Assembly: GCA_038065475.1 (NCBI GenBank)
Contig: JBBTQY010000001.1
Span: 26,145-90,144 of the forward strand
Direction: 5' to 3'
Length of the DNA: 64,000 bases
Source of the DNA: Patescibacteria group bacterium
GTDB taxonomy: Bacteria > Patescibacteriota > Minisyncoccia > Ryanbacterales > GWA2-47-10b
Positions 10,750-63,067 of this stretch are shown piece after piece. Within the stretch, counting starts at the first letter, position 1. The number at the start of each line of letters is the position of its first letter. The notes under the pieces were generated by a model. That model was given only the letters and a program-made list of their open reading frames with translations, had not been told where the DNA came from and ran no database searches. Position numbers and translations under genes: made by a program.

Positions 10750-10904
10750 GTTTTGATTATCGCCTAAAATCAGCGCAAATCAACATCAAACCTATCTAGG
10801 CTCGAGCTGGTTTAATTAGATTGCCCAAGGCGTCAGCGCGCAGCACGTGACAAACTCTACGCGCTTGATAAACCTTTTGAGAGATACTTGAGGGCTGATT
10901 AACA

Positions 10905-10960
10905 ATATAAAAAACTCCCCCGACAGTACTTTGCGCTTCGCGCATTTCCTGTCGGGGGTG
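10905..10960 (-). terminator. rho-independent terminator after the SPFH-like gene
   Basis: ctcccccgacag…ctgtcgggggtg inverted repeat (11 of 12 bp) with a nested gcgcttcgcgc hairpin, followed on the minus strand by TTTTTTATATT. Confidence 0.5.
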
Positions 10961-10984
10961 ATACTGTCGCCTGCTTGGCGAAGA

Positions 10985-11917
10985 CTACTGCTTCTCGGGC
11001 TGCTGATCCTGCTGCGGGACCGGCTTGATCTGCCCACGAAGGTACTCTGCTGCTACCAGCGAGTCTCCCAGGGGGCTCGCCTCACCCGTGATGATGAGCG
11101 TATTGGTGCCCGACTTGGAGCCCGTCTCGGCGATGCGTTCGAGCGACTCCCACTTCATGAAGGTCACGTACTCGGGGTTGGCACGGAGCGCGGCACCGAT
11201 GGCGTTGATGGCCGTCACCTTGGCGGCGGCTGACGCACTTTGGTTTTGCGCTCCCCATACCGTCTCGTCGGGCTTCACATTCGATAGCGAGACGTTCTGG
11301 AGGTCGAGCGGAACACCGTTGGCAGCAAAGGTATCCTTGACCATCTTGGCAATCTTGTCGTTGACCGCCTGATAGTCGGAGTACACGGCCTGGTAATCGT
11401 CGTAGCCCGCGAAGATGGCGCGCACCTTGCTGCGCACATCCATGCGAGCGAAACGATTGTAGACGTCTTCGACCGTGATGTAGCGGACGAGGACATCATT
11501 CTTGCCATCGCGCGGCGTGACGAGCGCGAAGACGTTGTTGCGCTGCTTGTTCGCATCGGTATTGCCACCCGGAATCACCGCCCTGATGTAGACGTCGACG
11601 GCGAGTGGCGTACCCTTGCGAGTCAGCACGCGGTGATCCTGCTTGTCTTCGTTGCCCACGGCATCAGGAGCCATGAACTGCTCTTTGACCAGCGTCGAGG
11701 TCGCCTCGAGTAGCACCAGCGTGTTGTAGGTGCCGTTGGCATTCGACTGCCCAAGGTCAACCTGACCCGCTTCGCGGATGTCATCCTCCCAACCAGTGGG
11801 CGTGAGTATGCGACCCACGAATCCTGCTGGGATCTCCTTGACATTGCTGCACGCGCTACCGAACAGCGCCAGCGCGATGACAATGCCAAACACAAGCCTC
11901 TTGATATCTCTCTGCAT
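10985..11917 (-). CDS. SPFH/band-7 (HflK/C-like) domain lipoprotein
   Basis: Signal peptide with a Cys near the cleavage site (LFGSAC). The C-terminal …AIGAALRANPEYVTFMKWESLERIAETGSKSGTNTLII… resembles the HflC/stomatin C-terminus. GC-rich gene with a strong SD (gaGGAGGGcatcATG). Confidence 0.5.
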   Translation of the reverse strand: MQRDIKRLVFGIVIALALFGSACSNVKEIPAGFVGRILTPTGWEDDIREAGQVDLGQSNANGTYNTLVLLEATSTLVKEQFMAPDAVGNEDKQDHRVLTRKGTPLAVDVYIRAVIPGGNTDANKQRNNVFALVTPRDGKNDVLVRYITVEDVYNRFARMDVRSKVRAIFAGYDDYQAVYSDYQAVNDKIAKMVKDTFAANGVPLDLQNVSLSNVKPDETVWGAQNQSASAAAKVTAINAIGAALRANPEYVTFMKWESLERIAETGSKSGTNTLIITGEASPLGDSLVAAEYLRGQIKPVPQQDQQPEKQ

Positions 11918-11930
11918 GATGCCCTCCTCT

Positions 11931-12233
11931 TCAGTGAGCGTTGGAGTGGGCGTCGCCGGCCCGATCTTCGAAGCGATCGATCTGCCGATTGACGTCGGTA
12001 CGGTCGATGACCGCGCGTGGCGTCACGTTGACGCTCGCGGCTGCGAAGAGCTGCCAGATGAAGGCGGCCATGAGGATCAGGCCAAGAATGTTGCGCCCTC
12101 TGCGGATGAACACCTTGACGTCATCCTCGACCTCGGGCTGGGTCAAGAAGACCCACGCGACGCCAAACACGAAGGCGAGCGCTCCGAGCGTGCCTAGCAC
12201 ACCTGGATGTGCCCATCTCAAGAAATCTTCCAC
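11931..12233 (-). CDS. small two-TM membrane protein, co-operonic with the SPFH-like gene (NfeD-like partner?)
   Basis: 100 aa, GTG start preceded by AAGGGAG. 13-nt gap to the SPFH-like gene. GC-rich. Confidence 0.4.
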   Translation of the reverse strand: MEDFLRWAHPGVLGTLGALAFVFGVAWVFLTQPEVEDDVKVFIRRGRNILGLILMAAFIWQLFAAASVNVTPRAVIDRTDVNRQIDRFEDRAGDAHSNAH

Positions 12234-12454
12234 GACTTCTCCCTTCTGCCCATGCCTGCCGTTTGGTCAGGACTTATTGAGCATCCTCTGTTTATTGGAG
12301 CAGAAAGTGAACGAACAACCGAAAAAATAATACACTATTTTAAACTATATGTCAATCATCGCCGAGCGCGGGTTCTGAAAAATATTTCTAAGGATTGAGT
12401 CCGAAGTCAGCACAGCTGGTCCAGAATGGCTGTGGCTCTGCGTCAGCGCATATA

Positions 12455-12637
12455 CTACGACGACCGCAGCATGTCAAAACTGGGCAGTTCAATACCATAC
12501 CAACGAGCAACAAAAAATAGCAAACATACAGCGGCAATAAAGCAAACCAATACGATCAAAAATAGACCGCGCGGCTTGCCGCGTGCTGGTGGTTTTTCTT
12601 CTTCTAAATCATCAAGATTCCAAATTTCTTCTGGCAT
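12455..12637 (-). CDS. hypothetical small membrane protein
   Basis: 60 aa with one TM helix. Last gene downstream of GH6 on the same strand. Confidence 0.3.
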   Translation of the reverse strand: MPEEIWNLDDLEEEKPPARGKPRGLFLIVLVCFIAAVCLLFFVARWYGIELPSFDMLRSS

Positions 12638-12652
12638 ATAATAAATATATAA

Positions 12653-13885
12653 CTATTCAAAACGAAATGGCGAGTTTTTAATCATTTCGAGAGCTCTTTC
12701 CGTCCAAAATTTGCCCGTGGGTACCCCGCCGTTACATGGTCCATCGGATTCTCCTGGTAGTTTAACCCATAAAAGCGCATCTACAAGCACATTACCTGTC
12801 GTAGTAGTCGGCACCTTGCCTATAGTTACTCCAGGGGCATTACACCACTCTGTTTTATGCGGACCAGAACCATTGCGGCTCGTATCGATCACAAAGTGTT
12901 TATTACCAATAAGCGTGGAGACCTCTTGCCCAAAGGCAATCTCATCTGAAACGTACTGATAGTTAGAGACATTAAGAGCAAAGCCATCAGCCGAATCAAT
13001 GCCCGCTGTTTTAAGAAAATTAGCGATACTGCTCGCCTTGCGCCAATTGCTATGACCGGCATCAAGATATATTCGCGCTTTTGGCGCCTTGGCTCTCAGA
13101 GTCAAAATGGCTTTTTTGAGGTCCGCCAGACGGACAGCTTGGTCAGAATCACTCAAATTCGCAACAAGACCTATACTATCGGGCTCAAGGATGATCCAAG
13201 CATCATGATCTCCTATAGACTCAGCGACAGCGGTAACCCACTGAGCATAACTATCTCCCGCCGTTATGCCGCTCCAGTAACGTAGCGTTGTATGGTCAGG
13301 AATATTGTAAAGTACCAAAATAGGCATTTTACCTGCAGCTGTAGCCTTAGAAACAGTAGAAATTACGCGAGAACGAATAGTATCGAGGTTGTCGCCAATG
13401 ATCCATGTACCCTGAGGTCTACAAGAAATTTGCTGCAATAAATCAGCATCTGCTATATTGCCAGCGTTTCGTAATTCTTTCTCAACGCGAACTGCTTGCA
13501 TGGTGGGATCAACATAAAAATTTGTTGAATTTTTCGCGTATTCGCAGCTAAAAACCTTTTGTGGATTTGGTGGCGGGGGTGGGTTAACAACGACTACTGG
13601 AGGAGGAGTAGGGTTTACCGGTGGTGGAGGTGGGGAGATTGGTTTTGGCGGAGGCACAGGCAATACTGGTGGAGGAGGATTAACCACTTGAATGGGCGGC
13701 GGTACATTAGGTTGAGGAATTGTTGGTGGATTGGGAGAAATAACGACTGGAGGAATTTCTTCTTCTCTCTCCCAAGTTTGAGTCGTTTGTGTATACGTAG
13801 ATGCAAAAAGTACGAAAATAAAACCCGCAGCGATAAACACCACAGCAAGATACTGAATAAGCCCGCTTGTATTATCTCTTCCCAT
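12653..13885 (-). CDS. glycoside hydrolase family 6 (endoglucanase/cellobiohydrolase-like), membrane anchored with proline-rich linker
   Basis: N-terminal TM and a Pro-rich PPxP linker. Catalytic domain has the GH6 signatures AWIILEPDSIGL (cf. VIEPDSL) and DALLWVKLPGESDG (cf. WVKPGGESDG). Confidence 0.75.
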   Translation of the reverse strand: MGRDNTSGLIQYLAVVFIAAGFIFVLFASTYTQTTQTWEREEEIPPVVISPNPPTIPQPNVPPPIQVVNPPPPVLPVPPPKPISPPPPPVNPTPPPVVVVNPPPPPNPQKVFSCEYAKNSTNFYVDPTMQAVRVEKELRNAGNIADADLLQQISCRPQGTWIIGDNLDTIRSRVISTVSKATAAGKMPILVLYNIPDHTTLRYWSGITAGDSYAQWVTAVAESIGDHDAWIILEPDSIGLVANLSDSDQAVRLADLKKAILTLRAKAPKARIYLDAGHSNWRKASSIANFLKTAGIDSADGFALNVSNYQYVSDEIAFGQEVSTLIGNKHFVIDTSRNGSGPHKTEWCNAPGVTIGKVPTTTTGNVLVDALLWVKLPGESDGPCNGGVPTGKFWTERALEMIKNSPFRFE

Positions 13886-13890
13886 TATTC

Positions 13891-14619
13891 TTAGAATTTC
13901 CAGGCCTCCGAACGTTTTAAGGGAAAGGTGCGCCGATCACTATTGATAACGGTTTCAGCACGCTGAATGTCTTCCGGTGTTGATAGTGGATGCCAAAAAC
14001 TCGACGGCACCGCCATAATCTTTTTAGTTGCAAGCATTTGCCCAACAGCATGGGAAAGAAAATACTCACCAGTAGCGCTATGTACCTCGGGTGCGTAGTC
14101 AAAAACAGAATAATCGAGCAGCAAAACTCCCGTACTCACCATATTTGTTTTTGGATACAACGGTTTTTCTTCAATATCTCTAATATGGCCTGCGCGATCA
14201 ACTTCAACTACACCGTATGGGCGAGGATCATCGACCTCAGCAACTAAAAGAGCTCTATCATATTTTAAACACTCTTTAAATCCATCTGCTCCATGCAAAT
14301 CGTCGGCGAAGACAACAAAAAAGCGCTCGCCAGGCGACAAAAGATGCTTGGTCTTTTCTAGGGCTTTATATGTACCCTTGATCTCATCATCGCCCACATA
14401 GGTGACACGACGCCCCAAAAAATAATCTCCACAATATTCACGAATCATATCGCCGAGATATCCGACAACGATAACCAACTCATCCACCTGGCGTGGGAGC
14501 TGAGAAACCACATGCTCAATAAGGGCCCTTTTATTTACTTCGACAAGCGGCTTGGGCCTTTCAAGAGTTAAGGGGCGCATACGCGTCCCCTTGCCTGCCG
14601 CCAGAATAATTGCTTTCAT
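13891..14619 (-). CDS. sugar-phosphate nucleotidyltransferase (RmlA/GalU-like)
   Basis: MKAIILAAGKGTRMRPLTLERPKPLV is the canonical NTP-transferase N-terminus. Short (242-aa) form. Confidence 0.8.
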   Translation of the reverse strand: MKAIILAAGKGTRMRPLTLERPKPLVEVNKRALIEHVVSQLPRQVDELVIVVGYLGDMIREYCGDYFLGRRVTYVGDDEIKGTYKALEKTKHLLSPGERFFVVFADDLHGADGFKECLKYDRALLVAEVDDPRPYGVVEVDRAGHIRDIEEKPLYPKTNMVSTGVLLLDYSVFDYAPEVHSATGEYFLSHAVGQMLATKKIMAVPSSFWHPLSTPEDIQRAETVINSDRRTFPLKRSEAWKF

Positions 14620-14629
14620 GTTCGATCAA

Positions 14630-15505
14630 TCAAAACGGAATAGCCTTATAATCATCAAACGACACATCCATAAAATCCGTACGGATGCCCGCATACCCCT
14701 CTTTGACGATTGGGCTTACTCCGTACTTTGATCCTGTATCTTTTGCTTCCAATACTAGCGTCCAAGTGCCAGTTTTGCCTTTATCCATAAAAAGCTTTAT
14801 CGCGACACTGCCATCAGCATTATTTTGCGATTCACTGCGAAGGCCTATCCAAACATTTTTTGGCAATAAATTTGGATTTGTATCTCGATTATAGATGCCT
14901 GGAAATATTTTTTTATAGGCAATCGTGTGGTAAGTGCCATTTTGCTTCTTTTTGATAACCGCCGCTCCATCAACACGAGTACCTACGTAATACAGGTTAT
15001 TACCATCTTGATAGCGATTAAAAAGAAGAAGACCATTAGACGCGTCACGATTTGGGCTTTTACTCAGATTGTCTTTGTTGATCTTAAAATATGCTTCCTG
15101 CTTAAAATTGCCCCATTTGGAACGCGTTAACAAACGAAAAATGTTTTGCGGATGATACCCATTATCTGTATCGACAGGATTGGAGCTACTATAAATAAGA
15201 CGCCACTTATCAATAATGGATAAATTACCATCTATAGTTTTTCCAACTCCATCAACAATATGTAAGTAAGCACCGGAATTTAACCACCAATACGGACTAG
15301 AACTATAATCCATCTGCCCACTCTCCACTAATTTGCCGGGAACATTAAAAGTATAAACAAAATTAGAAGTAATAATCGCTGACGGTGTCTTTAACTCTGC
15401 AGCTGACAGTAAAGCTAAGCCCAATGTATTATCAAAATAATACTGACTAATGCCCGCAAGAATAAAAGATATTAACAATAACAAAATAAAAATTGGTCTT
15501 TTCAT
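14630..15505 (-). CDS. secreted hypothetical protein in the EPS operon
   Basis: Signal peptide. 291 aa, β-rich and Asn/Tyr-rich. 4-bp overlap with the deacetylase gene. AT-rich. Confidence 0.5.
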   Translation of the reverse strand: MKRPIFILLLLISFILAGISQYYFDNTLGLALLSAAELKTPSAIITSNFVYTFNVPGKLVESGQMDYSSSPYWWLNSGAYLHIVDGVGKTIDGNLSIIDKWRLIYSSSNPVDTDNGYHPQNIFRLLTRSKWGNFKQEAYFKINKDNLSKSPNRDASNGLLLFNRYQDGNNLYYVGTRVDGAAVIKKKQNGTYHTIAYKKIFPGIYNRDTNPNLLPKNVWIGLRSESQNNADGSVAIKLFMDKGKTGTWTLVLEAKDTGSKYGVSPIVKEGYAGIRTDFMDVSFDDYKAIPF

Positions 15506-17118
15506 AGTAATTTCTCAACAATTAATTGATTAACGATCACCTCGCTGTTGTTTTCAACAGGATCCCATACTTTAAACCCTATACCACCGCGATCTAAAGA
15601 GGAATCCAAGGAATCTACAGACAAAAGCTCTTCGCCATCAATAAAGCACTTTATGGTGTTCTTGTGAACGGACAACTCGAAGGTGGCATTATCCCAAGAA
15701 AAATTCTGATCTATGGAAGTTTCGGCGATCTTCTTTCTTTCTCCGTTTATAGATTCATCTATACGAATAAAACGTCCAGAGACATTACAAGAAGTAAAAT
15801 TTTTACTATCTTTATATCGCGCGACCAGAGATAGCGATTCTCCTCTCGTCCAATCAATTAATGCCTTCAAATGATAATTTTCCCAATTACGCGTACCGTC
15901 TAAAACAACAGCAGCACCCGTTGTTTTTTCTCCTGCGCGCAAAACTAGCGAAGAATTCTTTAATCCTATGTTTCCCCATTCCTTTATCCATTCCTCATTA
16001 AGAGAAAAATCATAAATATGTAAAGGTATTTCTTTAGACCGCCCCGCATTCAATACCCTTAATAAGTCTGCATCTGTCCATGCTCCTCCAACATCTATAC
16101 GCTTAACTAAAAAAGTATTGTCGTCAAAATAATTTTGAGTAAAACCAGCACTAGGATATGTTTGGAAAAATGCTAAATCATAATTATCTTTAACTGAATT
16201 GAGCAAAACCCTTTGGGCCTCGGGATAATTTGTTATATTTTGGGCAAAGTCACCATAAGGAAAAGCGAAAGAAACAGAAGCTATATCCAAAACTCTCTCA
16301 ATTTTTTCCTTAACTAAGCTTATATCATGCCCGATACGTTGCTCATATTCATCATCTGTCTCTAATCTTCCAAGCTCTTTCAACCAAAGTTTATTAGTAT
16401 AATAGTGTCCCTGTTCGCCGTTTATAGAGATTGATTGAAAAACATGGCCACTATCGGCATGTGCTTGAATCTCCCAACGTCCACTGCGCTTCATCGCCCG
16501 TAGTTCATTAGCATTTAGATAATAAGAACTTTTTCTATCACTATCAGTCAACGAATGGCCACTGATAATAAAAGTGACAGCATTATAATCCAATGCTCTC
16601 AAAATGGGATCGACTGGGTAGTAACTTGACTTCGCTCCATCATCAAACGTTAATAAAAATGATTTATTCGGTAGGGTCTTTTCACCCTTAACGAAGGAGT
16701 TAAAATCCTCGACACTTATAGTTTTCCAGCCAGCTTGTTTGAGCGCAAACATCTGAGCCTCAAAATTCGTTTTCGTAATATTTTCTCCATCAGGGATGTC
16801 TACAAGGCCGTGGTAAAGAAGCACGGGTACAGACTCCGCGGTACCCGTAACAACGACGTTTTCTACTGTTGATCTATTTGAGAATATTCTCGCTAGACTG
16901 CCGAGCATATCATTCTCCGCATAAGCCAATTTTGCAGCATAAAAGCCATAAGCTGCAGTTTCTTTGCTATCCAAAATCATTCCGTCGGTAAATTGGGATA
17001 AACTCTCCCTAATGAACAAGAAGGCATAACTGCCACAAAAAAGTAATATAGCAATTACGGTAACTCGCAAAACCTTTAATCTTGAAAAATCTAAATATTT
17101 CATTATCGAGTTCCCCAT
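15502..17118 (-). CDS. polysaccharide deacetylase (CE4/NodB-domain) with C-terminal β-rich domain, membrane anchored
   Basis: N-terminal TM. NodB-type motifs (LLTFDDGAKS, …HADSGH). A ~250-aa C-terminal extension gives a PgaB-like overall layout. Confidence 0.75.
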   Translation of the reverse strand: MGNSIMKYLDFSRLKVLRVTVIAILLFCGSYAFLFIRESLSQFTDGMILDSKETAAYGFYAAKLAYAENDMLGSLARIFSNRSTVENVVVTGTAESVPVLLYHGLVDIPDGENITKTNFEAQMFALKQAGWKTISVEDFNSFVKGEKTLPNKSFLLTFDDGAKSSYYPVDPILRALDYNAVTFIISGHSLTDSDRKSSYYLNANELRAMKRSGRWEIQAHADSGHVFQSISINGEQGHYYTNKLWLKELGRLETDDEYEQRIGHDISLVKEKIERVLDIASVSFAFPYGDFAQNITNYPEAQRVLLNSVKDNYDLAFFQTYPSAGFTQNYFDDNTFLVKRIDVGGAWTDADLLRVLNAGRSKEIPLHIYDFSLNEEWIKEWGNIGLKNSSLVLRAGEKTTGAAVVLDGTRNWENYHLKALIDWTRGESLSLVARYKDSKNFTSCNVSGRFIRIDESINGERKKIAETSIDQNFSWDNATFELSVHKNTIKCFIDGEELLSVDSLDSSLDRGGIGFKVWDPVENNSEVIVNQLIVEKLL

Positions 17119-18389
17119 CTAGAATCGCGAATAGTTATCATCGCCCAAGGCAGTTGCCACATAAGCATCACTGTATAAAACCAAAAAGTCATCACGGACA
17201 AAAACCAAGCACGCGGACCCACTTGAGTACGATAATAAATCCCGTGCAATAATAACATTAAGAATAAACCAGCCAAATAGGCGAGAGGAATGCTTCCTGT
17301 CAAATACGGATGCCAAATAACAGCCCTTATAAAAACAATGGGCGCACTAAGGGCAAGAATGACATAGGAATAATACGATAGAGCAGCAAAAAAATTTTTA
17401 CGCCACATAAACGCGCTGGCAATTAGCGTCTCTCTAATCCAAGATTTTTTCCATCTCTGCTGCTGTTTAATATATTTACCAAGCGTATCTGGCACAACTG
17501 TGTGCGCCTTTGCTTCTGGAGAATAAACAGCTTCATATTTTCGAATAATAAAATTTGTTAAACTTCTGTCATCACCGAATGTACACTCACTTCCTAAGAA
17601 CCTCTGATTTAGCCAAACGTCAATAAACTCGAGTAAATACTCTCTACGATATGCAGAACAACAGCCGGGACAGCAAGTTACATTACCAAAAACGGATTCA
17701 GCTGCCTTATAAACACTAAAAGCGATAAAATATCTTGTGGCCTGCATCTGTGTTAAAAGATTTGTATCTCTATTAAAAACATCTGTATGCCCAGAGACAG
17801 CTCCAACTCTCGGATTAGAAAAATATTTTACAAGATGCTTGACACAATCAGGGGCAATAAAACTATCCGAATCAATAAATATAACTATTTCATGGTTTGC
17901 CCTTCTTACCCCTTCTGCCATACCTGCTCTTTTACCGCGATTAACTTTCCAATTAACAACGGTAACTGGTATTTCTTGACCTATCTCCTTTTTAATTTTC
18001 AACATCTCAGCATAGGTACTATCTGTTGAGCCATCATTAATAGCAATAATTTCTATTTTTTCTTTAGGATAATCCGCATGCAAAAAGCGCCTAATCGTCT
18101 CAGCAACATTATCTTCTTCGTTTTTTGCTGGAACAACAAAAGTGATTGAAGGCTGATAGCCCTCATCATGCTTAATAGATCTATGGAAATATGCAAGAAA
18201 AAATCTTGAAATAATATAAATAAAAATTAAAATACTATAGAATTTAAAAAAGGTTACCCCCCCGACAAAGCTAGTCGTGCTAATTTTAAATAAAAGTATC
18301 AAATAGAGCACAACAAAAAAAAGAAACCAAAAACCAAAATCACTAAATACTGCGAGCCTTTTTTTAATTTTATTAAAAATTTTTGCCAT
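17103..18389 (-). CDS. processive family-2 glycosyltransferase (PgaC/HasA/cellulose-synthase-like synthase)
   Basis: Two N-terminal TMs, then a GT-A domain with DGSTD and DSDS motifs and QQQRWKKSW (QxxRW), then C-terminal TM helices. Confidence 0.8.
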   Translation of the reverse strand: MAKIFNKIKKRLAVFSDFGFWFLFFVVLYLILLFKISTTSFVGGVTFFKFYSILIFIYIISRFFLAYFHRSIKHDEGYQPSITFVVPAKNEEDNVAETIRRFLHADYPKEKIEIIAINDGSTDSTYAEMLKIKKEIGQEIPVTVVNWKVNRGKRAGMAEGVRRANHEIVIFIDSDSFIAPDCVKHLVKYFSNPRVGAVSGHTDVFNRDTNLLTQMQATRYFIAFSVYKAAESVFGNVTCCPGCCSAYRREYLLEFIDVWLNQRFLGSECTFGDDRSLTNFIIRKYEAVYSPEAKAHTVVPDTLGKYIKQQQRWKKSWIRETLIASAFMWRKNFFAALSYYSYVILALSAPIVFIRAVIWHPYLTGSIPLAYLAGLFLMLLLHGIYYRTQVGPRAWFLSVMTFWFYTVMLMWQLPWAMITIRDSRWGTR

Positions 18390-55376: not shown

Positions 55377-56146
55377 TCCCTTATTTTATATCCGATCTTG
55401 AATAGATACCAGACCCAATAACCGAGGCCGAGGATAAGACCTATGGTAAGTGCCATGCCAGCAATCATATTGGACTCAGAAATACCGAGCATCGTGTAGC
55501 GAAGACCATCGACAAAATAGAAAAACGGATTGAGCCGCACCACCCACTGCAAGAGCGGCGGCATCATGTAGATCGAGTTAAACACGCCGCCCAAAAAAGT
55601 TAATGGCGTGATAATAAAAATACTCGGGAGCGAAAGCTGTTCGAAATTTTTTGCCCAGAGCGCGACGAGCATACCCGCGAGTGAGAAGATGGTCGAGATA
55701 GCAGCCGCGTAAAGAATCATCAAGAAAAAATGTGCAACGGTAGCCTGAGTAAAGAAAACCCCTAGAGCATACACACCTGCGCCCACAATGACGCCTCTGA
55801 CCACGCCGCCTGCCAAAAATCCAATAATCATCTCAAAATATGAGAGCGGCGCTACAAGCAACTCATCGATCGCGCGGAACCACTTCATGACGTAAAGTGA
55901 GGTCGAGGTATGCGAAAATGCCGAGTTCATAATATTCATCATCACGATACCGGGAAGCACGAAATCAATATAAGATACGCCAGCAATCGTATCGATGCGC
56001 TGACCTACAACGTGACCAAAGATCAAAATATAGAGAAGCGAGGAGATCCACGGTGCGCCCAACGTCTGGATCCACACGCGAAACATGCGCCCCGTCTCGC
56101 GAGCAACAAACGTATAAAGACCTACCCAGTTTATTTTATGCATCAT
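55373..56146 (-). CDS. ABC-2 type transporter permease
   Basis: Six TM helices and ABC-2 family topology. Overlaps the ATPase gene. Confidence 0.8.
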   Translation of the reverse strand: MMHKINWVGLYTFVARETGRMFRVWIQTLGAPWISSLLYILIFGHVVGQRIDTIAGVSYIDFVLPGIVMMNIMNSAFSHTSTSLYVMKWFRAIDELLVAPLSYFEMIIGFLAGGVVRGVIVGAGVYALGVFFTQATVAHFFLMILYAAAISTIFSLAGMLVALWAKNFEQLSLPSIFIITPLTFLGGVFNSIYMMPPLLQWVVRLNPFFYFVDGLRYTMLGISESNMIAGMALTIGLILGLGYWVWYLFKIGYKIRE

Positions 56147-56871
56147 AATGATTTGCCATCCTTGGTAATTTCCAAATATGTCTGCTCGAGTTTTTTACCA
56201 CCTGTCGTAAACTCGCTCTTGTCTCCTATTGCTGCGATCTTGCCACCACTAATAATCGCGATGCGATTACATAAAAACTCTACTTCTTCTAAATAATGAG
56301 ATGTGAGCAAAATAGTCTTACCGGCTTTATTTAAGTCCTGTAAATATCGCCATAGGTCGTGACGCATCTCTACATCAACGCCTGCGGTCGGCTCGTCGAG
56401 AATCAGCAGATCGGGATCATGCACCATGGCACGCGCAAGCATCACGCGACGCTTGAGCCCACCTGACAAGGCCATAAAGCTTTTTTTGCTGTGCGCGCCG
56501 AGCTCAAAGCGTTCAAGTACATCATCGACTCTCTTTTTGCGCGAAGCACCCGGGATGCCATAATAACCACCCACGTACCATAAAATATCATACGCGGTCG
56601 CAAAAATGTCGACATTAAAATCTTGCGGGGCTAATCCAATCTTTTTGCGTGCTTCACGATAATCAGCAACCACGTCGATACCAAATACTTTGATCGTACC
56701 GCCCTGAAACGATGCAATGCCCGTCGTACATTTGATAGTCGACGTCTTGCCGGCACCATTAGGTCCTAAAAAACCGAAAAACTCACCCGGCTCGATAGAA
56801 AACGAGATTTCTTTGACGGCGTCCGTAGCACCGTATGATTTGCGCAGATTTTTTATTTCAAGAGCTTTCAT
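56143..56871 (-). CDS. ABC transporter ATP-binding protein
   Basis: Walker A GPNGAGKTS, signature LSGGLKRR, Walker B LLILDEPT. Confidence 0.9.
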   Translation of the reverse strand: MKALEIKNLRKSYGATDAVKEISFSIEPGEFFGFLGPNGAGKTSTIKCTTGIASFQGGTIKVFGIDVVADYREARKKIGLAPQDFNVDIFATAYDILWYVGGYYGIPGASRKKRVDDVLERFELGAHSKKSFMALSGGLKRRVMLARAMVHDPDLLILDEPTAGVDVEMRHDLWRYLQDLNKAGKTILLTSHYLEEVEFLCNRIAIISGGKIAAIGDKSEFTTGGKKLEQTYLEITKDGKSL

Positions 56872-56875
56872 AATA

Positions 56876-57253
56876 TCATTTTACCGTAGCGCCAGGTGGC
56901 ACCTCTCTGTCGGGTGTTAAGAGTACCGGCACATCGGCACCAGCCGCAAGTAGCATCCCCTGACTTTCCAAACCCATGAGTTTACGCGGCTCGAGATTGA
57001 TAACCACCACAATCTGACGACTTATCAAATCTTCAGGCGCATATCCTTTACCGATACCAGCAATAATCTGACGCGGCCGCTCGGTACTTGCCTCATCGAC
57101 TTCTCCGGTATCAACCGAAAGACGAATCAATTTATCAGAACCCTCGACGCGCTCGGCGGCACGTATCGTGCCTACACGCAGTTCAGTTTTTGCAAAATCG
57201 TCATAAGAAATCGTCATGTCTTCTATCATGCTATGCCTGAGGTCAATTGGCAA
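56876..57253 (-). CDS. tRNA-binding (CsaA/Trbp111-like OB-fold) protein
   Basis: …FAKTELRVGTIRAAERVEGSDKLIRLSVDTGE… resembles the MetRS C-terminal/CsaA tRNA-binding domain. Start may be an internal Met. Confidence 0.65.
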   Translation of the reverse strand: MPIDLRHSMIEDMTISYDDFAKTELRVGTIRAAERVEGSDKLIRLSVDTGEVDEASTERPRQIIAGIGKGYAPEDLISRQIVVVINLEPRKLMGLESQGMLLAAGADVPVLLTPDREVPPGATVK

Positions 57254-57256
57254 CTT

Positions 57257-58417
57257 TTAGATGCGTCCCGCGCGAATATCATCACGCACGCGAGCAACCA
57301 ATGCATTAAAATAAAAAAGATTGTGTTTTGAAAGAAGTGACATCGCCGTCATCTCACCTGCGCGCCACAGATGTGTGATGTATGCGCGCGAATAAGTTTT
57401 ACATACTTCGCACGCACATTTCTTATCAAGCGGTTTTTGATCTTTGAGATAGGCGATTTTTTTTATATCAAGCTTGCCGGTACTCGTATAGGCAAACCCG
57501 CGACGAGCATAGTGAGTAGGTACAATACAATCAAATGTATCGGCACCCGCCCTAACGATTGGTACAATATCTTCCGGATATCCAATACCGAGCAAATGCC
57601 GAGGTTTTTCTTCTGGTAGTTCGTCTACTACCCAACCTACCATCCGTGTCATAGCACTCTTGTCATCACCAAACTCGCCACCAATACCAATACCATCAAA
57701 CGGCAATGCCCCCGTAAAACGCGCCGATGCTCTGCGCAAATCTTCAAACTTGCCGCCCTGCACAATACCATAGAGCGCCTGTTTGTTTTTCTTTTTATAT
57801 TTAAGACAAAGCTTGGCCCACAGGTGACTCCGCTCAAGTGAACGCTCAGTATAGGCGCGATCGGCTATCGGCGAGGTGCACTCGTCAAACGCAAAAATAA
57901 TATCAGCACCTAGTTGCTCCTGAATACGCATTGATTCACGCGGGCCGATAAAGATTTTGGCGCCATCGATTGGCGAGCGAAACTCGACGCCTTTGTCAGT
58001 AATGCGCAGTTTCTGCGGTTGTGCACCTTTTTTTATTTCCTTATCACTCTTTTCTTTGAGCATTTTACCCGTACCAAAATCATGCCCAAAGCCAAGACTA
58101 AATACTTGAAATCCACCCGAATCAGTCATCAGCGGCCGCGGCCACTGCATAAACTTATGAAGCCCGCCTGCGCGCGCGACAACCTTCTCACCAGGGCGCA
58201 GGTGGAGGTGAAACGTATTGGCAATCAAAAGTTGCGCTTTTGCGTCAAGTGCATCTTGTGAGGTCAGCGTTTTAACCACTGCTCGCGTCGCTACCGGCAC
58301 AAACGCAGGAGTTTCTATCTCACCGTGCGCGGTACGCAAAACCCCGAGACGCGCTCGGGATTTTTTGGATTTTTTTGTTATGCGAAACGAGAACATAATC
58401 GGCCAATCATACGGCAA
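57257..58417 (-). CDS. tgt: queuine tRNA-ribosyltransferase
   Basis: TIM-barrel TGT and a C-terminal zinc site CACEVC…H. Confidence 0.9.
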   Translation of the reverse strand: MPYDWPIMFSFRITKKSKKSRARLGVLRTAHGEIETPAFVPVATRAVVKTLTSQDALDAKAQLLIANTFHLHLRPGEKVVARAGGLHKFMQWPRPLMTDSGGFQVFSLGFGHDFGTGKMLKEKSDKEIKKGAQPQKLRITDKGVEFRSPIDGAKIFIGPRESMRIQEQLGADIIFAFDECTSPIADRAYTERSLERSHLWAKLCLKYKKKNKQALYGIVQGGKFEDLRRASARFTGALPFDGIGIGGEFGDDKSAMTRMVGWVVDELPEEKPRHLLGIGYPEDIVPIVRAGADTFDCIVPTHYARRGFAYTSTGKLDIKKIAYLKDQKPLDKKCACEVCKTYSRAYITHLWRAGEMTAMSLLSKHNLFYFNALVARVRDDIRAGRI

Positions 58418-58426
58418 ATCAAGTAC

Positions 58427-60337
58427 TTACTCAAGCCTTCCCCCCTTCCAAACTAAAATCGAAAGTTTATCTGCTGGGATGCTGATCGGACGATTCTTGA
58501 ATGTAAACGAAAGACCTTCTTGCTGCTGCCAATTATCAATCACAAACAATTCCTCGCGCGAGCTTCCACGAAAGCGTCTGACATCAATGCCCGCAGGAAT
58601 ATTAGAAAGGCTAATACGGTCCATGTAGACAGGCTTGCGCGCCCACCAGTTTTTTTCATTACGCTCCTCAACGATCATTTTGACTGCTGTGTTGAGTACG
58701 CCAGCTGCTTCCTGCCCAGTCTCAAATGGCCGCATGATATCAAGCTTTGCGCCGAGCAAAAATGCCTCCCGCTCCGTAATGTAGTTGTTGGCAACACCCC
58801 AGTACGCATGACCACCGTTTGATTCTCCCAAAAACATTGCTTGTCCATTGAGAAAATATCTTCCGAACCGAGGAAAACGTGTACGCGCCCCGCCCGGATC
58901 AACCACGTCATTGTTGTTATCAAGAAATCCGCTGATCAAAAACGCGGCAGGATAAATATCATGCACTCCTTCAATGACCGCATCTTTGGGCAATCGATCA
59001 CGCAAGAAACGCGCGACCGTCAAAATATCGCCAAAATCTTGCCGCGCAAAGATATCGATATAGTGTGCATTTGCCTTGTACTCATCGCGATTGCGCGCGA
59101 CCCAGTCAAGGAGGTACGCGGTGTTTGTAGTATTTTCAACGCCGTCTACACCAAAGAGTGGACCGCCCTCGGTGATCAAATGCGGGCGAGAATAATAACC
59201 TACGCGACCTCCGCTCACCGCAACGGACTCTGCAAACTGCGGTAATGACGACACGTAGCGCGGATGCATTTCTGTTTTATCAACACAGCATCCTACCAGT
59301 TCACCTGGGAGCGGCGACGGCACCGCAAGATTGGGCGGTCCTGCATACGTACTCATTTGCCCCCACAGCTGCATCCAAGGAAAATGGGTCTTTGTCTTAT
59401 CATAAAGTGCTTGAATGCTTGCAATATCAAATGACGCGCGATTCTGAAGCTGCACGTTGATCCAGCCGTGAGATGTATTGAGCCAATCGGGGTAAGTTGG
59501 CTTTTCGATTTTTGCGACGCGCAACTGCCGATCAAGCCACGAGCGATATTTATCGACTGCCGTTTGCCATGCTTCTGCTGCACCCACCGTTTTTTTCTTT
59601 TTTACTTTTGCAATGAGTGTTCGGTAGGTTACAGACGTATTGAGAGGCACATCTTGCTCATAACGCAACACCATACGATTGAGTGAATAGAGCGGGGTAA
59701 CTGTGCGTGGGGGCCAGTTTGTCGCAGCGACAATCTTTGCCTCCATATCATTTGCAGAGACTACTAGCGGCGCATAAATGGCCCCCGGGTATTCCAAGCC
59801 CTGCCAACCCCATTCGACAAGCGTGGAATCTTTTTGCGCAGCGCCAAGAAACACCGTACTGTAAATAACCGCATCATCACGCAGAGGATTGAGGGGGTTA
59901 CGCTGAGCTTCCCACGGAAAATAGACTTGGGTAATCGTGCGTACTTTTGTAGTCAGTGTTAACTGCCACTGATCGCGCCCGGCGCGGATAACCATGGCAC
60001 CTACATCAACATCACTTACCACCCCGCTATCGGGAACCGCATACTGTTTGAGTGTGCCATCAGAAAATTTCACCGCAAAACCCGGATACACACTGCCGGC
60101 GACCGATGCACTTTGAGCAAACGTAAGTGGAACATCTTCTGCAGCAAGGGCTTCGGCATCATCCGTGCTGGCGGTAACAATGCTTAATAGCTCTGCGAGG
60201 CCGTGATCAATCGCCTCAACATAAACACTGTAACGCCACCCGACAAACGAAAGAAAGAAAAAAACAGAAGCAGCAAGTATAACGACAACAAAACTTTTAT
60301 CGAGAATTTTAAACATCATGCGCTCCATCATCCCCAC
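58427..60337 (-). CDS. hypothetical large membrane-anchored extracytoplasmic protein (possible glycoside-hydrolase-like)
   Basis: N-terminal TM. 636 aa. No family recognised. Confidence 0.45.
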   Translation of the reverse strand: MGMMERMMFKILDKSFVVVILAASVFFFLSFVGWRYSVYVEAIDHGLAELLSIVTASTDDAEALAAEDVPLTFAQSASVAGSVYPGFAVKFSDGTLKQYAVPDSGVVSDVDVGAMVIRAGRDQWQLTLTTKVRTITQVYFPWEAQRNPLNPLRDDAVIYSTVFLGAAQKDSTLVEWGWQGLEYPGAIYAPLVVSANDMEAKIVAATNWPPRTVTPLYSLNRMVLRYEQDVPLNTSVTYRTLIAKVKKKKTVGAAEAWQTAVDKYRSWLDRQLRVAKIEKPTYPDWLNTSHGWINVQLQNRASFDIASIQALYDKTKTHFPWMQLWGQMSTYAGPPNLAVPSPLPGELVGCCVDKTEMHPRYVSSLPQFAESVAVSGGRVGYYSRPHLITEGGPLFGVDGVENTTNTAYLLDWVARNRDEYKANAHYIDIFARQDFGDILTVARFLRDRLPKDAVIEGVHDIYPAAFLISGFLDNNNDVVDPGGARTRFPRFGRYFLNGQAMFLGESNGGHAYWGVANNYITEREAFLLGAKLDIMRPFETGQEAAGVLNTAVKMIVEERNEKNWWARKPVYMDRISLSNIPAGIDVRRFRGSSREELFVIDNWQQQEGLSFTFKNRPISIPADKLSILVWKGGRLE

Positions 60338-60735
60338 AATGCCAATATGCTCGCCATCACCAAAAATGCAACGAGCTGATACGACACATAGATGAGGAAA
60401 CTCGTCTTGCTCTGACTTTCAAAAGCAACGTCGGCAAGTTTGGTTGTCACAATATATCCAAGCCACGTCCAAAACGCGAGCGGCAATGCGCCACCTACCG
60501 TTGTAATGTCGAGCATTTTAATAAAGTGCGCGAGCACAAACGCCGTGAGCATCGCGCCTACAAACCCCCACGCCATTGCCTGCACCTGTCCACCTTTTTT
60601 TAAATCTTCTTCGGTCTTACCTGATGCTGCCATCCACGCCTTGGCAAAGAGCAACGGTGAATACCAAAGCCCACCGATAATAAAATTGGCGATACCTGCC
60701 GCCAACACTGCCCAGTAATTTACAATGATATCCAT
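60328..60735 (-). CDS. DUF1761-family membrane protein
   Basis: MDIIVNYWAVLAAGIANFIIGGLWYSPLLFAKAW matches the DUF1761 N-terminus. Confidence 0.6.
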   Translation of the reverse strand: MDIIVNYWAVLAAGIANFIIGGLWYSPLLFAKAWMAASGKTEEDLKKGGQVQAMAWGFVGAMLTAFVLAHFIKMLDITTVGGALPLAFWTWLGYIVTTKLADVAFESQSKTSFLIYVSYQLVAFLVMASILALWG

Positions 60736-60764
60736 AAAAAATATATTTTTTATAAAGTGACCGT

Positions 60765-61106
60765 TTATGAACCTAAAATATGCTCAATTTTTGCCGCTAG
60801 AATAAAATCGTTTTCTGAAAGCCCCTTGATCGCATGCGTCCAAAGCTCGATCGTCACGATGCTATATGAAATGTGAATATCGGGATGATGACCTTCACGC
60901 TCTGCGATATCTGCCACTTTATTTACAAAACCAATGGCATCGCGAAACGTACCGAACTCAAACTCGCATAATATTTTCCCCGCATCGGGTGCAAGTTCCC
61001 ATGTTGCACGCAAGTCAGATATCTGACGAATTGCCTGCTGGCGCGTGAGTGGCTGAGCACTTCCTTCGCACGGTACACATTTTTTATCGAGCAATGAACT
61101 TACCAT
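60765..61106 (-). CDS. pterin-4a-carbinolamine dehydratase (PCD/DCoH)
   Basis: …EREGHHPDIHISY… (the [EDKH]-H-H-P motif). Confidence 0.8.
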   Translation of the reverse strand: MVSSLLDKKCVPCEGSAQPLTRQQAIRQISDLRATWELAPDAGKILCEFEFGTFRDAIGFVNKVADIAEREGHHPDIHISYSIVTIELWTHAIKGLSENDFILAAKIEHILGS

Positions 61107-61164
61107 ACACACAGTATCTCACGGTAAGAAAAAACGGGCAAAGAAAAAAGCCGCGCCCGATTGG

Positions 61165-61644
61165 CTACGGCTTTGCCTGACGAGATTTGCGACGAGCCTC
61201 TCTAATGCTGTGCTTTGAGGTGCCCGCGATCCTGCGAACAGAGAGGTACTTTGGCAATTCCTTACCCTGAAGCTTTTGCTTGCGCCATTCCTGGAGACCG
61301 GACCGCAAGTTGTCAGCGTCAAGATCGCAGGCCGAACAGATATTCGCGAACGAATACGGCCAGGTGATGTTCTGAGATTCGATCCAAGCCTGAGCCTCAC
61401 GAAAAAGTCTTTGTCCACGGCGGTTGGAAGGAGCGGCAGACGCATATCTCTGGTAGGTAGCGATGGCATCAGTGAGCACGGCGAGCATAAGCCGCATCTC
61501 CGCCCTGTCTCGAATTGCAGAACTACCACTCTGCGAAACCCCACCAAAGAACTGGCCGGGAAGAATTGCATTGCCGCCGAAAATCGTCACCGCTGAACTA
61601 CTCGCAAGAATGCCGGCCACTCGCGCATGAGCAGACATCATCAC
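61165..61644 (-). CDS. hypothetical protein, paralog A (GC-rich island)
   Basis: Shares the LAVLxDAIAxxQ…AWxxS…WPYSFxxICS…LRxxLxxWR module with 61651..62121. GAGGAG SD. Confidence 0.45.
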   Translation of the reverse strand: MMMSAHARVAGILASSSAVTIFGGNAILPGQFFGGVSQSGSSAIRDRAEMRLMLAVLTDAIATYQRYASAAPSNRRGQRLFREAQAWIESQNITWPYSFANICSACDLDADNLRSGLQEWRKQKLQGKELPKYLSVRRIAGTSKHSIREARRKSRQAKP

Positions 61645-61650
61645 CTCCTC

Positions 61651-62121
61651 TTAGTCACGAGCTTGAACAGAATGTCGATGTACTCGGTTAGCACGCCGCG
61701 GCGTACGAGGAACGGGCAGGACAATCATCCGACGCCACTTCCAAAGATTTTGACGTAGCTCCGTGGAGTCGAATCCGAAAAGACTGCAGATACTCTCAAA
61801 GGAGTAGGGCCACGAGCAATCGCGCGAGGTAAACCATGCACTCACCTCTTCGAACTGCTGCTTATCTCTTCGCCCAAACGCGCAAGCATGCAGCTGGAAG
61901 AGAGCAATCGCGTCTTCAAGTACCGCCAGCGCCAAACGGTATTCCCCCGAAAGATCGTCAACACCCACTTCGATACCTTGTGCGAATGTACCGAAGAAAA
62001 CCTCGGGCGGAACCCAGTCGGGTTCTAAGAGGCCCTCAACCCCATCCCGAGAAAAGACATTTCCGTACGTGTTGCCGAACCCCCGCTGTACCATGTTGGA
62101 AATAACGCCGATACGAACCAT
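61651..62121 (-). CDS. hypothetical protein, paralog B (GC-rich island)
   Basis: Same conserved module as paralog A. GGGGGAGGG SD. Confidence 0.45.
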   Translation of the reverse strand: MVRIGVISNMVQRGFGNTYGNVFSRDGVEGLLEPDWVPPEVFFGTFAQGIEVGVDDLSGEYRLALAVLEDAIALFQLHACAFGRRDKQQFEEVSAWFTSRDCSWPYSFESICSLFGFDSTELRQNLWKWRRMIVLPVPRTPRRANRVHRHSVQARD

Positions 62122-62244
62122 CGCAATGTCCCTCCCCCAAAGTAAGAAATCTGAATAAGATTGTAGAAGAAAGAAGAAGATTATGCAAGAGATTGACTAG
62201 CTTGTCAAAAACCTCTATCAATAGAGAGGAAAGGAGTTCGCACA

Positions 62245-62468
62245 TGAAAACTAAAAAGCCGTGCTCATCTTACGGCTACCATTCGATACGCGTAATCTCG
62301 ACAAAGCGTATCGCACGCGAAAAACAATCGACCATCCCCGGCCTTGGTGCGCTCGCCCTCTCATGGACGGAAGTGCGTACCCGGCACCGCTGCCGTACCT
62401 GCCGCCGCCAACGCACGATCATCACGCGGGAAAACTATCGCCAACAGCACTCGCCGCCTCCTACCTAG
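62245..62468 (+). CDS. small basic protein (74 aa)
   Basis: AAAGGAG 7 nt before the ATG. Lys/Arg-rich. Divergent from the paralog pair. Confidence 0.35.
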
Positions 62469-63067
62469 GGGTGGCTTTCTTTTTCCAATGCTTCAATTAC
62501 CTCTTTGCTATTCATATATTTATAAAATATTCCCACCACAATAAGGGCTACTAGTGAAAGCACAAGAGCGTACGCACCAAAAATATCTTCGGTCTTACCA
62601 AAGAAATATCCGATCGCCAAAAAGATAAGCGACCAGAGCCATGACGAGATAAAAATAATCGGCACAAAAACCGCGCGATGCATTTTAGAAACGCCCGCGG
62701 GAATCGGCGCGAACACTTTGATGGCTGGCAACATCTTTGCTACAAATAAAAACCATGCTCCTCGCCTCCGAAACGCGATAATAATTTTTTTTACTTCACG
62801 CTCAGGAAACATCGCCCATTTGGTAATATACGCAATACCATATGCGCGCACTAACTCATAGAGTATAATATTGCCGATCGTGTTACCAAGCGCACCCACA
62901 AGTGTAGTAATCCATATATTGAGGTGTCCTAATGAACCAAAATATCCAGCGACAATATATAAAACCTGACTCGATGGAAAGCTGATAAACCCATTGGCAA
63001 TCATCAGCAAGAAAACGCCTGCGTATCCTAACGCCTGCAAGATAGATTCAAAGGGTACGGCAAACAT
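62465..63067 (-). CDS. DedA/VTT-domain family membrane protein
   Basis: Second DedA paralog in the window, with the conserved G-rich re-entrant region. Confidence 0.75.
   Translation of the reverse strand: MFAVPFESILQALGYAGVFLLMIANGFISFPSSQVLYIVAGYFGSLGHLNIWITTLVGALGNTIGNIILYELVRAYGIAYITKWAMFPEREVKKIIIAFRRRGAWFLFVAKMLPAIKVFAPIPAGVSKMHRAVFVPIIFISSWLWSLIFLAIGYFFGKTEDIFGAYALVLSLVALIVVGIFYKYMNSKEVIEALEKESHP

Follow-up and report, generated by a model that had tools for sequence, protein, structure and literature searches.

GC-rich, Shine-Dalgarno-led gene cassettes scattered among genes without Shine-Dalgarno sites in the chromosome of a Candidatus Ryanbacteria genome

This report concerns a 64,000-nt stretch of DNA (the window), part of a 347-kb contig from the 0.1-µm fraction of Hainich groundwater (ENA ERZ1292624, 100% match), whose proteins are recorded at NCBI under the name 'Patescibacteria group bacterium' with locus tags AAB367_xxxxx. 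Scattered among its native genes are at least eleven small cassettes (A to K) that are GC-rich and whose genes begin behind strong Shine-Dalgarno (SD) sites, a signal found at none of the native genes surveyed. After curation the cassettes comprise 17 open reading frames (ORFs) with a G+C content of 54-65% and add up to 8.5 kb or 13% of the window, each consisting of one to four genes on 0.2-1.5 kb. Modest confidence is placed in the reading that they form a pool of autonomous, SD-led cassettes circulating within the Candidate Phyla Radiation (CPR), lodged in a core genome that does not use the SD. The window is core chromosome of Candidatus Ryanbacteria (CPR/Patescibacteria) and not a mobile element: the neighbours of the cassettes are housekeeping genes, and no prophage or phage setting was found in the window. 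The closest genomes, identified through the UppP protein, are the Candidatus Ryanbacteria metagenome-assembled genomes (MAGs) L004 (isolate CH-Oct18-76) and L005 (Lake Baikal), with UppP identities of 84-86% and syntenic genes 70-79% identical at the nucleotide level.

Within the window, the dichotomy in G+C content and SD use is real and statistically overwhelming. The energy of SD pairing was calculated for the duplex between the 19 nt upstream of each start codon and 5'-GAUCACCUCCUUUCU-3', and sites with a free energy (dG) of -8.5 kcal/mol or lower were counted as strong. By this measure 16 of the 17 cassette ORFs and 0 of 56 native ORFs have a strong SD (Fisher 3e-15), compared with 5.4% of random positions window-wide and 9.2% of those inside the islands. 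A preliminary description of the sequence had placed an SD 4-9 nt upstream of island genes and none before native genes; the census upholds both statements, with a spacing of 4-9 nt from SD core to start in cassette ORFs. Ten of the island starts are the first start codon of the ORF, taken with the SD disregarded, and all ten have an SD; the other seven starts were chosen with the SD in view. Several cassette SDs are lengthened to GGAGGTGAT, which pairs with more of the canonical 16S tail than the core alone. The ORFs of the census were curated, and a clade-wide test described below used database gene calls; both replace an automatic greedy ORF caller that picked whichever of several possible starts had the best SD; with that caller the SD-GC association was noisy and much weaker because of spurious long antisense ORFs in GC-rich DNA and because choosing the best of several starts inflates SD calls for native genes. 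Several small cassette genes were missed by the database gene caller.

The mean G+C content of the window is 47.4%, with sharp steps to 54-63% in sliding windows, at essentially the coordinates that had been noted by eye. Codon usage changes with it: the G+C content at third codon positions (GC3) of island ORFs ranges from 0.51 to 0.80 with a mean of 0.67, versus a mean of 0.45 for the 56 native ORFs (Mann-Whitney 3e-9), as the preliminary description had led one to expect. First and second positions are also shifted (GC1/GC2/GC3 of.60/.46/.69 in islands versus.55/.40/.44 in natives), and so is non-coding DNA (.49 versus.41). Taken together, these shifts are approximately those of genes equilibrated at a genomic G+C content of about 58-60%, according to what we take to be the general relation between codon positions and genomic composition.

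Two patches of high G+C content differ from the rest. The patch formerly drawn at 31250-32110 does contain the island of cassette D, but the Zn-ribbon gene at its end (31911-32114, minus strand) is native, conserved and without an SD; it encodes 67 amino acids with a CxxC...CxxC pattern and a poly-Gly tail, is 94% identical in protein to its counterpart in L004, and was not called by the database caller. The bump at 51350-51925 is not an island and consists of the glycine codons of a native gene (GC3 0.43); this gene, at 51052-53055 on the minus strand, encodes a secreted protein of 667 aa, glycine-rich, repetitive and without a Pfam match, and the GGN codons of the gene produce a local rise in G+C content that mimics an island. 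An anomaly in the opposite direction is the AT-rich block at 14630-19690 (34-40% GC, GC3 0.29-0.40), which contains glycosyltransferase and ugd genes without SDs and lies inside a stretch (10084-29169) that is missing from the syntenic contig of L004.

The native genes, recognized by Pfam or database context, include def, fmt, a GH5-like cellulase, copA, copZ, a GH6 hydrolase, a cluster of glycosyltransferases, ugd, a 1545-aa PKD/PA14 surface protein, uppP, DedA, DUF3105, lexA, pepA, cdaA, SulP and an ATP-synthase gene (Pfam ATP-synt_ab). The motif TANNNT ends 4-11 nt before 18 of the 56 native starts, versus a background of 12% (p=6e-5), and an extended -10 box, TGnTAnnnT, lies 6-8 nt before the ATG of a 642-aa gene, of cdaA and of many genes in three genomes with homologs of cassette gene C1 (L069-L071). 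A -10 box beside the start in about one third of native genes suggests, to judge from these motifs, leaderless mRNA. The remaining native genes mostly abut or overlap the preceding gene inside operons, or have AU-rich upstream sequence. [quoted passage not shown]

Most of the cassettes have a consensus match to at least one of three elements, namely a -35/-10 promoter, a leader and a strong intrinsic terminator (Table 1). Promoter-like sites with both hexamers, which are consensus matches only, lie about 50-90 nt 5' of the first start; the best are those of cassette H (12 of 12 positions) and of cassettes A and J (11 of 12 each). Strong hairpins close cassettes B, C, E and H, in agreement with the earlier remark that several islands are bounded by strong terminators, and cassettes A, B, C, H and J are flanked by a promoter-like site and a strong terminator, again as consensus matches. 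Proteins of the envelope or for secretion, together with small membrane peptides, make up most of the cargo. A2 is the sole island protein with a Pfam match (Band_7, PF01145; 26.3 bits, gathering cut-off 23.6); it has 103 homologs, many of them annotated as HflC-like, and the A1+A2 module is conserved at many loci. The 'SPFH pair' reported before contains one SPFH protein, A2, while its partner A1 is a small protein with two transmembrane (TM) segments. The AlphaFold model of C1 has a pLDDT of 88 and a weak fold match to DUF336/GlcG-like proteins, and Pfam searches with 26 members of the C1 family gave no meaningful match. J1 and J2 are paralogous (38% identical). Cassette H could be an RNA instead of encoding the protein H1. 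Between cassettes E and F lies a 42-aa ORF (37014-37142, minus strand) that, by eye, looks like the N-terminal part of a HicB-type antitoxin and probably represents the remnant of a gene.

Table 1. Cassettes and their ORFs, GC-rich segments and native background, in window coordinates
Feature	Position	Strand	Signals and composition
Cassette A	10905..12355	-	promoter-like TTGACA-17-TATTAT (12355..12327); leader ~90 nt; terminator hairpin ~10911-10945; GC 0.60-0.62, GC3 0.77
A1, small two-TM protein	11931-12233	-	GTG start, SD GGGAG
A2, SPFH/Band_7 protein, probable lipoprotein	10985-11917	-	SD GAGGAGGG
Cassette B	27770..29129	-	promoter-like (29129..29100); structured leader 29020-29099; terminator 27795..27770 (11 pairs, T run); GC3 0.77-0.80
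B1, secreted Cys-rich protein	28426-29019	-	SD GGGGTGA
B2, secreted Cys-rich protein, paralog of B1	27822-28400	-	SD GGGAG
Cassette C	29973..30593	+	promoter-like TTGACT-17-AAAAAT, -35 overlapping last uppP codons; terminator 30571-30593 (10 pairs)
C1, 169-aa cytoplasmic protein	30049-30558	+	GTG start, SD AAGGAG, GC3 0.73
Cassette D, 175-aa predicted membrane protein	31284..31811	-	SD GAGGAGG 6 nt before GTG 31811; GC 0.58, GC3 0.65, dG -12.8; database call uses shorter start 31763
Cassette E, four small predicted membrane peptides/proteins (putative coding)	36340..36976	+	terminator 36952-36976
E ORF 1 (read from sequence)	36381-36497	+	SD AAGGAG
E ORF 2 (read from sequence)	36506-36730	+	SD GGAGGAG
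E ORF 3 (read from sequence)	36752-36856	+	SD GGAGGA
E ORF 4 (read from sequence)	36853-36951	+	overlaps preceding ORF
Cassette F, 188-aa membrane-anchored protein, collagen-like GPxG stretch	37225..37911	+	ATG 37300-37866; SD AAAGGAA 9 nt upstream; terminator 37895-37911; GC3 0.66, dG -10.4
Cassette G	41578..42575	+	TTGACA at 41578; conserved leader 41600-41676; terminator ~42533-42575 (hairpin ~42533-42570 read from sequence)
G1, 278-aa protein	41677-42513	+	GTG start, SD-like GGGGGG, GC3 0.68
Cassette H	50329..50734	+	perfect-consensus promoter-like TTGACA-17-TATAAT (50329-50357); leader ~60 nt; terminator 50706-50734 (12 pairs)
H1, 83-aa candidate ORF	50423-50674	+	TTG start, SD AGGAGG, GC 0.65
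Cassette I	50754..50985	-	terminator 50775..50754
I1, 62-aa ORF	50778-50966	-	TTG start, SD AAGGAGGT 7 nt upstream, dG -12.3
Cassette J	61165..62208	-	promoter-like TTGACA-17-CATAAT (62208..62180)
J1	61651-62121	-	SD GGGAGGG, dG -12.1
J2	61165-61638	-	SD GAGGAGGTGAT, dG -18.9
Cassette K, 74-aa basic ORF (putative coding)	62244..62475	+	ORF 62244-62468; SD AAAGGAG; hairpin 62453-62475; GC 0.58, dG -12.9
GC-rich segment (200-nt windows, GC >=54%)	10975-12250		60%
GC-rich segment	27850-29025		61%
GC-rich segment	30100-30525
GC-rich segment	31350-31750
GC-rich segment	36750-36925
GC-rich segment	37350-37700
GC-rich segment	41800-42500
GC-rich segment	50475-50825		63%
GC-rich segment	61375-62050
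Native background	1..64000	.	56 ORFs, none with SD (0/56 at dG <= -8.5)

It is scarcely credible that the islands are an assembly artefact created by chimeric joins with reads of a GC-richer organism, and nothing in favour of this was found. Logan assemblies of other sequencing runs (L002 and L003) reproduce window positions 23581-31896 and 26144-29521 with 100% identity, so that islands B, C and D, which are identical across independent assemblies, are not chimeric. Islands A, B and G are found at the same loci in L009, L005 and L004, which are MAGs or come from a Joint Genome Institute (JGI) metagenome. The island junctions fall in intergenic spacers, with promoter-like and terminator-like sites intact.

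Many of the cassettes differ in their presence among relatives. L004 lacks the segments equivalent to window positions 10084-29169, 29972-31866 and 36307-38923, and with them cassettes A to F; cassette B is kept in L005, cassette A is kept in L009, and an ortholog of G1 is present in L004. C1 is absent from L004 between uppP and a shared terminator, and cassette D is missing from the same genome along with C1 and a DedA gene of native G+C content (30600-31211). Compared with relatives, the junctions have the look of clean insertions or deletions within intergenic spacers. A further difference of this kind is a 205-aa gene at 10132-10905, of native G+C content and without a Pfam match, which has its own -10 box and, when compared with L009, represents about 770 nt of extra sequence inserted precisely where the SPFH terminator meets the promoter of the 642-aa gene.

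Where cassettes are shared, their silent sites have diverged 2-4 times less than those of flanking native genes. Between the window and L009, the four-fold silent distance is 0.21 for the SPFH gene versus 0.87-1.3 for copA, the 642-aa gene and other natives (Fisher 1e-14); the high value for copA does not stem from weak constraint, since the protein is 96% identical. The A2 ortholog of L009 is 91% identical in protein, and its 3' untranslated region is 94% identical, with 5 of 86 positions differing (6%) versus about 21% in a native intergenic spacer by hand count. Between the window and L005, a fraction of 0.41 of the four-fold silent sites differs in B2 (CysRich1), a distance of about 0.65 by our own correction, versus a fraction of 0.62-0.72, which is saturated, in the flanking natives. 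Cassette B is conserved in L005 at 60-67% GC; B1 and its counterpart there (9379-9900) share locus, leader and signal peptide, with mature parts only about 28% identical, whereas B2 is 77% identical, a pattern that points to rapid diversification or allele swapping of a secreted protein. The leader of the B operon (29020-29099, minus strand) is conserved with positions ~9850-9930 of L005 and contains two hairpins, one of which has a compensatory change from TTACAGA/TCTGTAA to TTGCAGA/TCTGCAA; judging from its sequence, the leader may be a regulatory RNA element.

Cassette G illustrates the separation of the SD from G+C content. The G1 ortholog of L004 stands in the same place and is 65% identical in protein, with silent sites saturated relative to the window copy. 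It is native in composition, with GC3 of 0.41 and a G+C content at four-fold degenerate sites (GC4) of 0.40 versus 0.65 in the window, and it retains the SD (AGGAGGAG) and the conserved leader. The start of this gene is the GTG at 41677 and not the TTG at 41626 that had been proposed. A block of the leader, GGAGGGGAGCCG..GGTTCCTTTTGTG (window 41612-41645; L004 16727-16760), is conserved upstream of the real SD. The SD motif is conserved in cassette orthologs of L004, L005, L009, L010 and L012.

The combination of elevated G+C content and SD is general to a group of CPR genomes and not a quirk of one. The pair of small-TM and SPFH genes also occurs in the close relative L009, in L010 (42% GC) and in L012 (46% GC), where it has 52-61% GC versus about 32-52% in the flanks and AGGAGG-type SDs, among neighbours without SDs that include ribosomal-protein genes; in L012 the module adjoins the ribosomal-protein cluster. 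Other ORFs without Pfam matches at these three loci show the same combination. A metagenome scan for SPFH gave 53 loci; in the CPR-like ones the G+C content of the SPFH gene is 0.02-0.19 above that of the flanks, and no such difference exists in soil contigs (57-61% GC) or phage-like contigs (30-37% GC). Homologs of the small-TM+SPFH pair or of C1 are GC-elevated and SD-led among SD-less genes in L009, L010, L012, L070 and L073. For C1, the homolog of L073 (host GC 48%) has GC of 0.59, GC3 of 0.76 and an SD of dG -16; that of L070 (host GC 36%) has GC of 0.44 and an SD; that of L069 (host GC 55%) has the G+C content of its host and the SD GAGGAGG, alone in a CPR-like genome whose genes are SD-less with leaderless-type starts; and that of L071 (host GC 36%) has no offset in G+C content and lacks an SD at its called start. 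The modules of SPFH and C1 lie in different neighbourhoods in L010, L012 and L069-L073.

A test on 109 database-called genes of seven loci gave a median GC3 offset of +0.145 for genes with strong SDs versus -0.01 for the rest (p=5e-7), to be read with the reservation that the loci were picked through homologs of island genes, so that each pooled locus holds at least one SD-led, GC-high gene by construction. Additional, unrelated ORFs in the pooled loci show the same pattern of SD and GC3. Among the same 109 genes, 11 of 18 with strong SDs lack a Pfam match versus 22 of the other 91 (p=0.004). No published description of such a coupling of GC-rich cassettes and SDs in CPR bacteria was found in the searchable literature.

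The preliminary description had taken the islands for cassettes acquired from an SD-using, higher-GC donor. A specific form of this proposal, in which they came from a bacterium outside the CPR (for example a soil or groundwater Acidobacterium or Actinobacterium) and kept the donor's ribosome-binding sites and unameliorated composition, is very unlikely. It draws on SPFH homologs of 47-50% identity that have SDs in soil contigs of uniformly 57-61% GC, on a cassette composition close to that of a genome of about 58-60% GC, and on promoter, SD and terminator signals that are textbook-bacterial in look. However, a neighbour-joining tree places the window SPFH protein among CPR copies on long branches, outside the clade of GC-rich genomes, with no donor clade emerging; a search through SPFH contexts did find a clade in genomes of 57-61% GC, in which the window copy is not nested. 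The cassette families look CPR-restricted wherever their homologs are named: all named members of the C1 family (89 homologs) are Patescibacteria or Paceibacterota, G1 has three relatives at E<=1e-10 among 1.8 billion cluster representatives, and J1 has one homolog besides itself among 5.8 billion clusters; C1, G1 and J are either confined to the CPR or almost orphan. Cassettes A and B predate splits for which the silent distances of the flanks range from about 0.9 (A, L009) to saturation (B, L005). Nor does the SD mark a donor: it is kept in the G1 ortholog of native G+C content in L004 and in GC-rich, CPR-like L069, whose other genes are SD-less. Because the SD remains with the gene even where the contrast in G+C content has disappeared, it cannot be taken as a sign of a foreign, SD-using donor; it goes with the class of cassettes, not with the translation system of a donor.

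Phage morons are autonomous promoter-gene-terminator units of deviating G+C content that are inserted between phage genes. The cassettes resemble them in the architecture of the units, in composition and in insertion without disruption of neighbours, and they might be viewed as moron-like cargo or remnants of GC-rich, SD-dependent phages or mobile elements of CPR bacteria, an explanation to which the SPFH module in three large phage-like contigs (L014, L015 and L072) and the SD of a LAGLIDADG ORF in the intron-bearing 23S region of otherwise SD-less L010 could lend weight. It is nevertheless highly improbable: the phage-like contigs are at 30-34% GC and carry SPFH copies that are related only distantly, the window contains neither phage nor integrase genes, and a scan of IMG/VR recovered a single, distant SPFH locus and nothing related to C1 or B2. 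Unlike morons, the cassettes lie in the core chromosome and not in a prophage, and phage relatives were not found for most of the cargo. The three contigs (416 kb, 161 kb and, from IMG/VR, 157 kb) are huge-phage-like and low in G+C content, and contain, besides the small-TM+SPFH module, an intein-containing DNA polymerase III alpha and RecA.

In the reading preferred here, the small autonomous SD-led expression cassettes scattered among native genes would be the flexible gene pool of the clade, gained, lost, swapped and exchanged among CPR lineages. They would probably stem from members of the same radiation with higher G+C content, or else from a GC-rich mobile element not yet seen. Native genes would initiate without an SD, being leaderless, coupled to the preceding gene or AU-rich upstream; cassette mRNAs, which would be leadered and, being GC-rich, more structured, would need an SD to recruit the 30S subunit, and a ribosome of a clade that keeps the canonical anti-SD would still read it. 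The earlier claim of horizontal acquisition is partly supported, by the foreign-looking composition, patchiness, varied contexts and low silent divergence of these self-contained units; no hallmarks of mobility were found. Scans for repeats, tRNA genes and Pfam domains revealed no integrase, transposase, tRNA gene, direct repeat or shared border sequence with the cassettes; tRNA and Rfam scans of the window gave no matches, rRNA included; and neither attC-like sites or target duplications nor a common imperfect inverted repeat were found at the cassette ends.

The lack of mobility features weighs against circulation of the cassettes, as do the absence of C1 and B2 relatives from IMG/VR, the choice of the seven loci through island-gene homologs, and several further observations. 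Segments that differ in presence among relatives also hold genes of native G+C content (DedA, the 205-aa gene). Island proteins have diverged as much as native ones despite their low silent divergence, a combination that could reflect constrained silent sites instead of recent sharing. Substitutions between the SPFH copies of the window and L009 are balanced (10 GC-to-AT versus 9 AT-to-GC), B1 has a GC4 of about 0.8 in both the window and L005 despite mature parts that are so dissimilar, and CPR copies of SPFH and C1 share only 45-60% identity with one another, yet most of those examined in lower-GC genomes are GC-elevated. In the loci examined, the SD class is never clearly below its host in G+C content. 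The persistence of high G+C content in deeply diverged copies and the balanced substitutions leave room for active maintenance of G+C content or for re-seeding from a GC-rich pool.

The main rival to circulation of the cassettes is that they are a class of native genes kept in place: vertically inherited, tightly regulated, leadered envelope genes in which G+C content is actively maintained, either through selection that acts on codons or on mRNA structure, or through GC-biased gene conversion at accessory loci prone to recombination, and in which the SD serves to translate the few leadered mRNAs of a mostly leaderless organism. The directional, recurrent elevation of G+C content in most of the lower-GC CPR genomes examined, even between copies of 45-60% identity, the fixed locus and constant GC4 of B1, the balanced SPFH substitutions, the low silent divergence beside ordinary protein divergence, and the conserved leaders, one with a compensatory change, are all in its favour. 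It is doubtful all the same, given that GC1, GC2 and non-coding DNA are also shifted, for which codon selection alone is insufficient; that the ribosomal-protein genes of L012 have no GC3 elevation, so the pattern is not codon bias linked to expression; that the L004 ortholog of G1 is fully native in G+C content; and that cassettes are absent from close relatives and occupy different contexts across genomes. A broader view, also rather unlikely, is that CPR bacteria of the Paceibacteria type operate two regimes, a leaderless, SD-free core and a clade-wide pool of stably GC-rich envelope and secreted-protein cassettes, to which promoter, leader and SD would be confined. The GC-richness of the pool could then be maintained by selection or biased gene conversion and not be the fading signature of a donor, or a mobile element or virus of CPR bacteria, GC-rich and so far undiscovered, could re-seed the pool continually; SD pairing would be a dedicated switch of an accessory regulon for host interaction.

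Whether cassettes circulate or stay in place, their SDs would be of use only to a ribosome with an anti-SD, a motif that Tsurumaki et al. (2022, PMC9297842) detected in just 48% of the 16S sequences of Parcubacteria, a finding that adds to the points against a circulating SD-led pool. The complete 16S gene of L032, a CPR-like locus of uncertain relatedness to the window, ends at its 3' side in GGATCACCTCCTTTCT, a canonical anti-SD, and the extended cassette SDs (GGAGGTGAT) match this tail; the only SD-bearing genes of L032 are the small-TM gene, the SPFH gene and one for another small membrane protein. By extension, the window organism may also have an anti-SD. That the cassette SDs function is argued from the conservation of well-spaced SDs in the orthologs of L004, L005, L009, L010 and L012.

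The cassettes and the division of SD use extend known kinds of genomic organization, namely atypical-gene islets and genomes with dual modes of initiation. In SD-poor Bacteroidota, the anti-SD is kept and is used for few genes only. The window is similar in that most genes are SD-less, a minority have SDs and a canonical anti-SD is seen (here in L032), but it belongs to another phylum, its SD-less genes have a leaderless signature and not an A-rich non-SD motif, and its SD genes are GC-rich and accessory. Genomes of GeneMarkS-2 groups C (leaderless plus ribosome-binding site; Actinobacteria, Deinococcus) and X likewise have a -10 box close to many starts and SDs elsewhere (PMC6028130), whereas here the SD set is a small, accessory and compositionally distinct minority, and native genes internal to operons are also SD-less. 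Islets of atypical genes undergoing amelioration (PMC6028130) are comparable in their steps of G+C content and codon usage, their patchiness and their accessory, mostly uncharacterised cargo. Atypical genes are usually lower in G+C content than the host, according to the same paper, but the cassettes here are higher; they are of single-operon size without integrase, tRNA gene or flanking repeat, their class of composition coincides almost perfectly with a different initiation signal, and the offset persists in deeply diverged copies. The loss of the anti-SD in a subgroup of Parcubacteria (PMC9297842), in the same radiation, is consistent with SD-less native genes; that study deals with rRNA only, and the conserved, well-spaced cassette SDs and the anti-SD of L032 argue that some lineages still pair. 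Integron gene cassettes are also small units of one or a few accessory genes, but here there is no shared attC-like repeat, no intI and no array, and each unit would have its own promoter.

CPR bacteria (Patescibacteria) account for a large share of bacterial diversity, are almost all uncultured, and have unusual ribosomes that are missing some ribosomal proteins. If the SD is confined to a GC-rich accessory class, gene callers trained on one start model will assign wrong starts to, or overlook, genes of one of the two classes. The combination of SD and GC3 offset would be a cheap marker of a flexible gene pool, probably for host interaction, in thousands of CPR MAGs, and the use of the anti-SD in a largely SD-free bacterium would be directly testable with existing metagenomes and metatranscriptomes. 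GC-richness that persists in deeply diverged copies bears on the true pace of amelioration.

In many CPR-like loci the small-TM+SPFH module directly adjoins rRNA genes, with 23S-5S genes upstream in L010 and L016, both of which break off within the 23S gene, a 23S gene downstream in L024, L026, L038 and L041, and a 16S gene downstream in L032. In the 23S region of L010 (1-3307) a group I intron occurs together with two LAGLIDADG ORFs; a strong SD precedes the first of these ORFs, in a genome that is otherwise SD-less. Close to its 5' end, the 16S gene of L032 (8501-10429) contains about 430 nt of inserted sequence. In the low-GC contig L037, two copies of the HEARO RNA (Rfam RF02033; 62-283 and 6148-6367) flank the SPFH locus.

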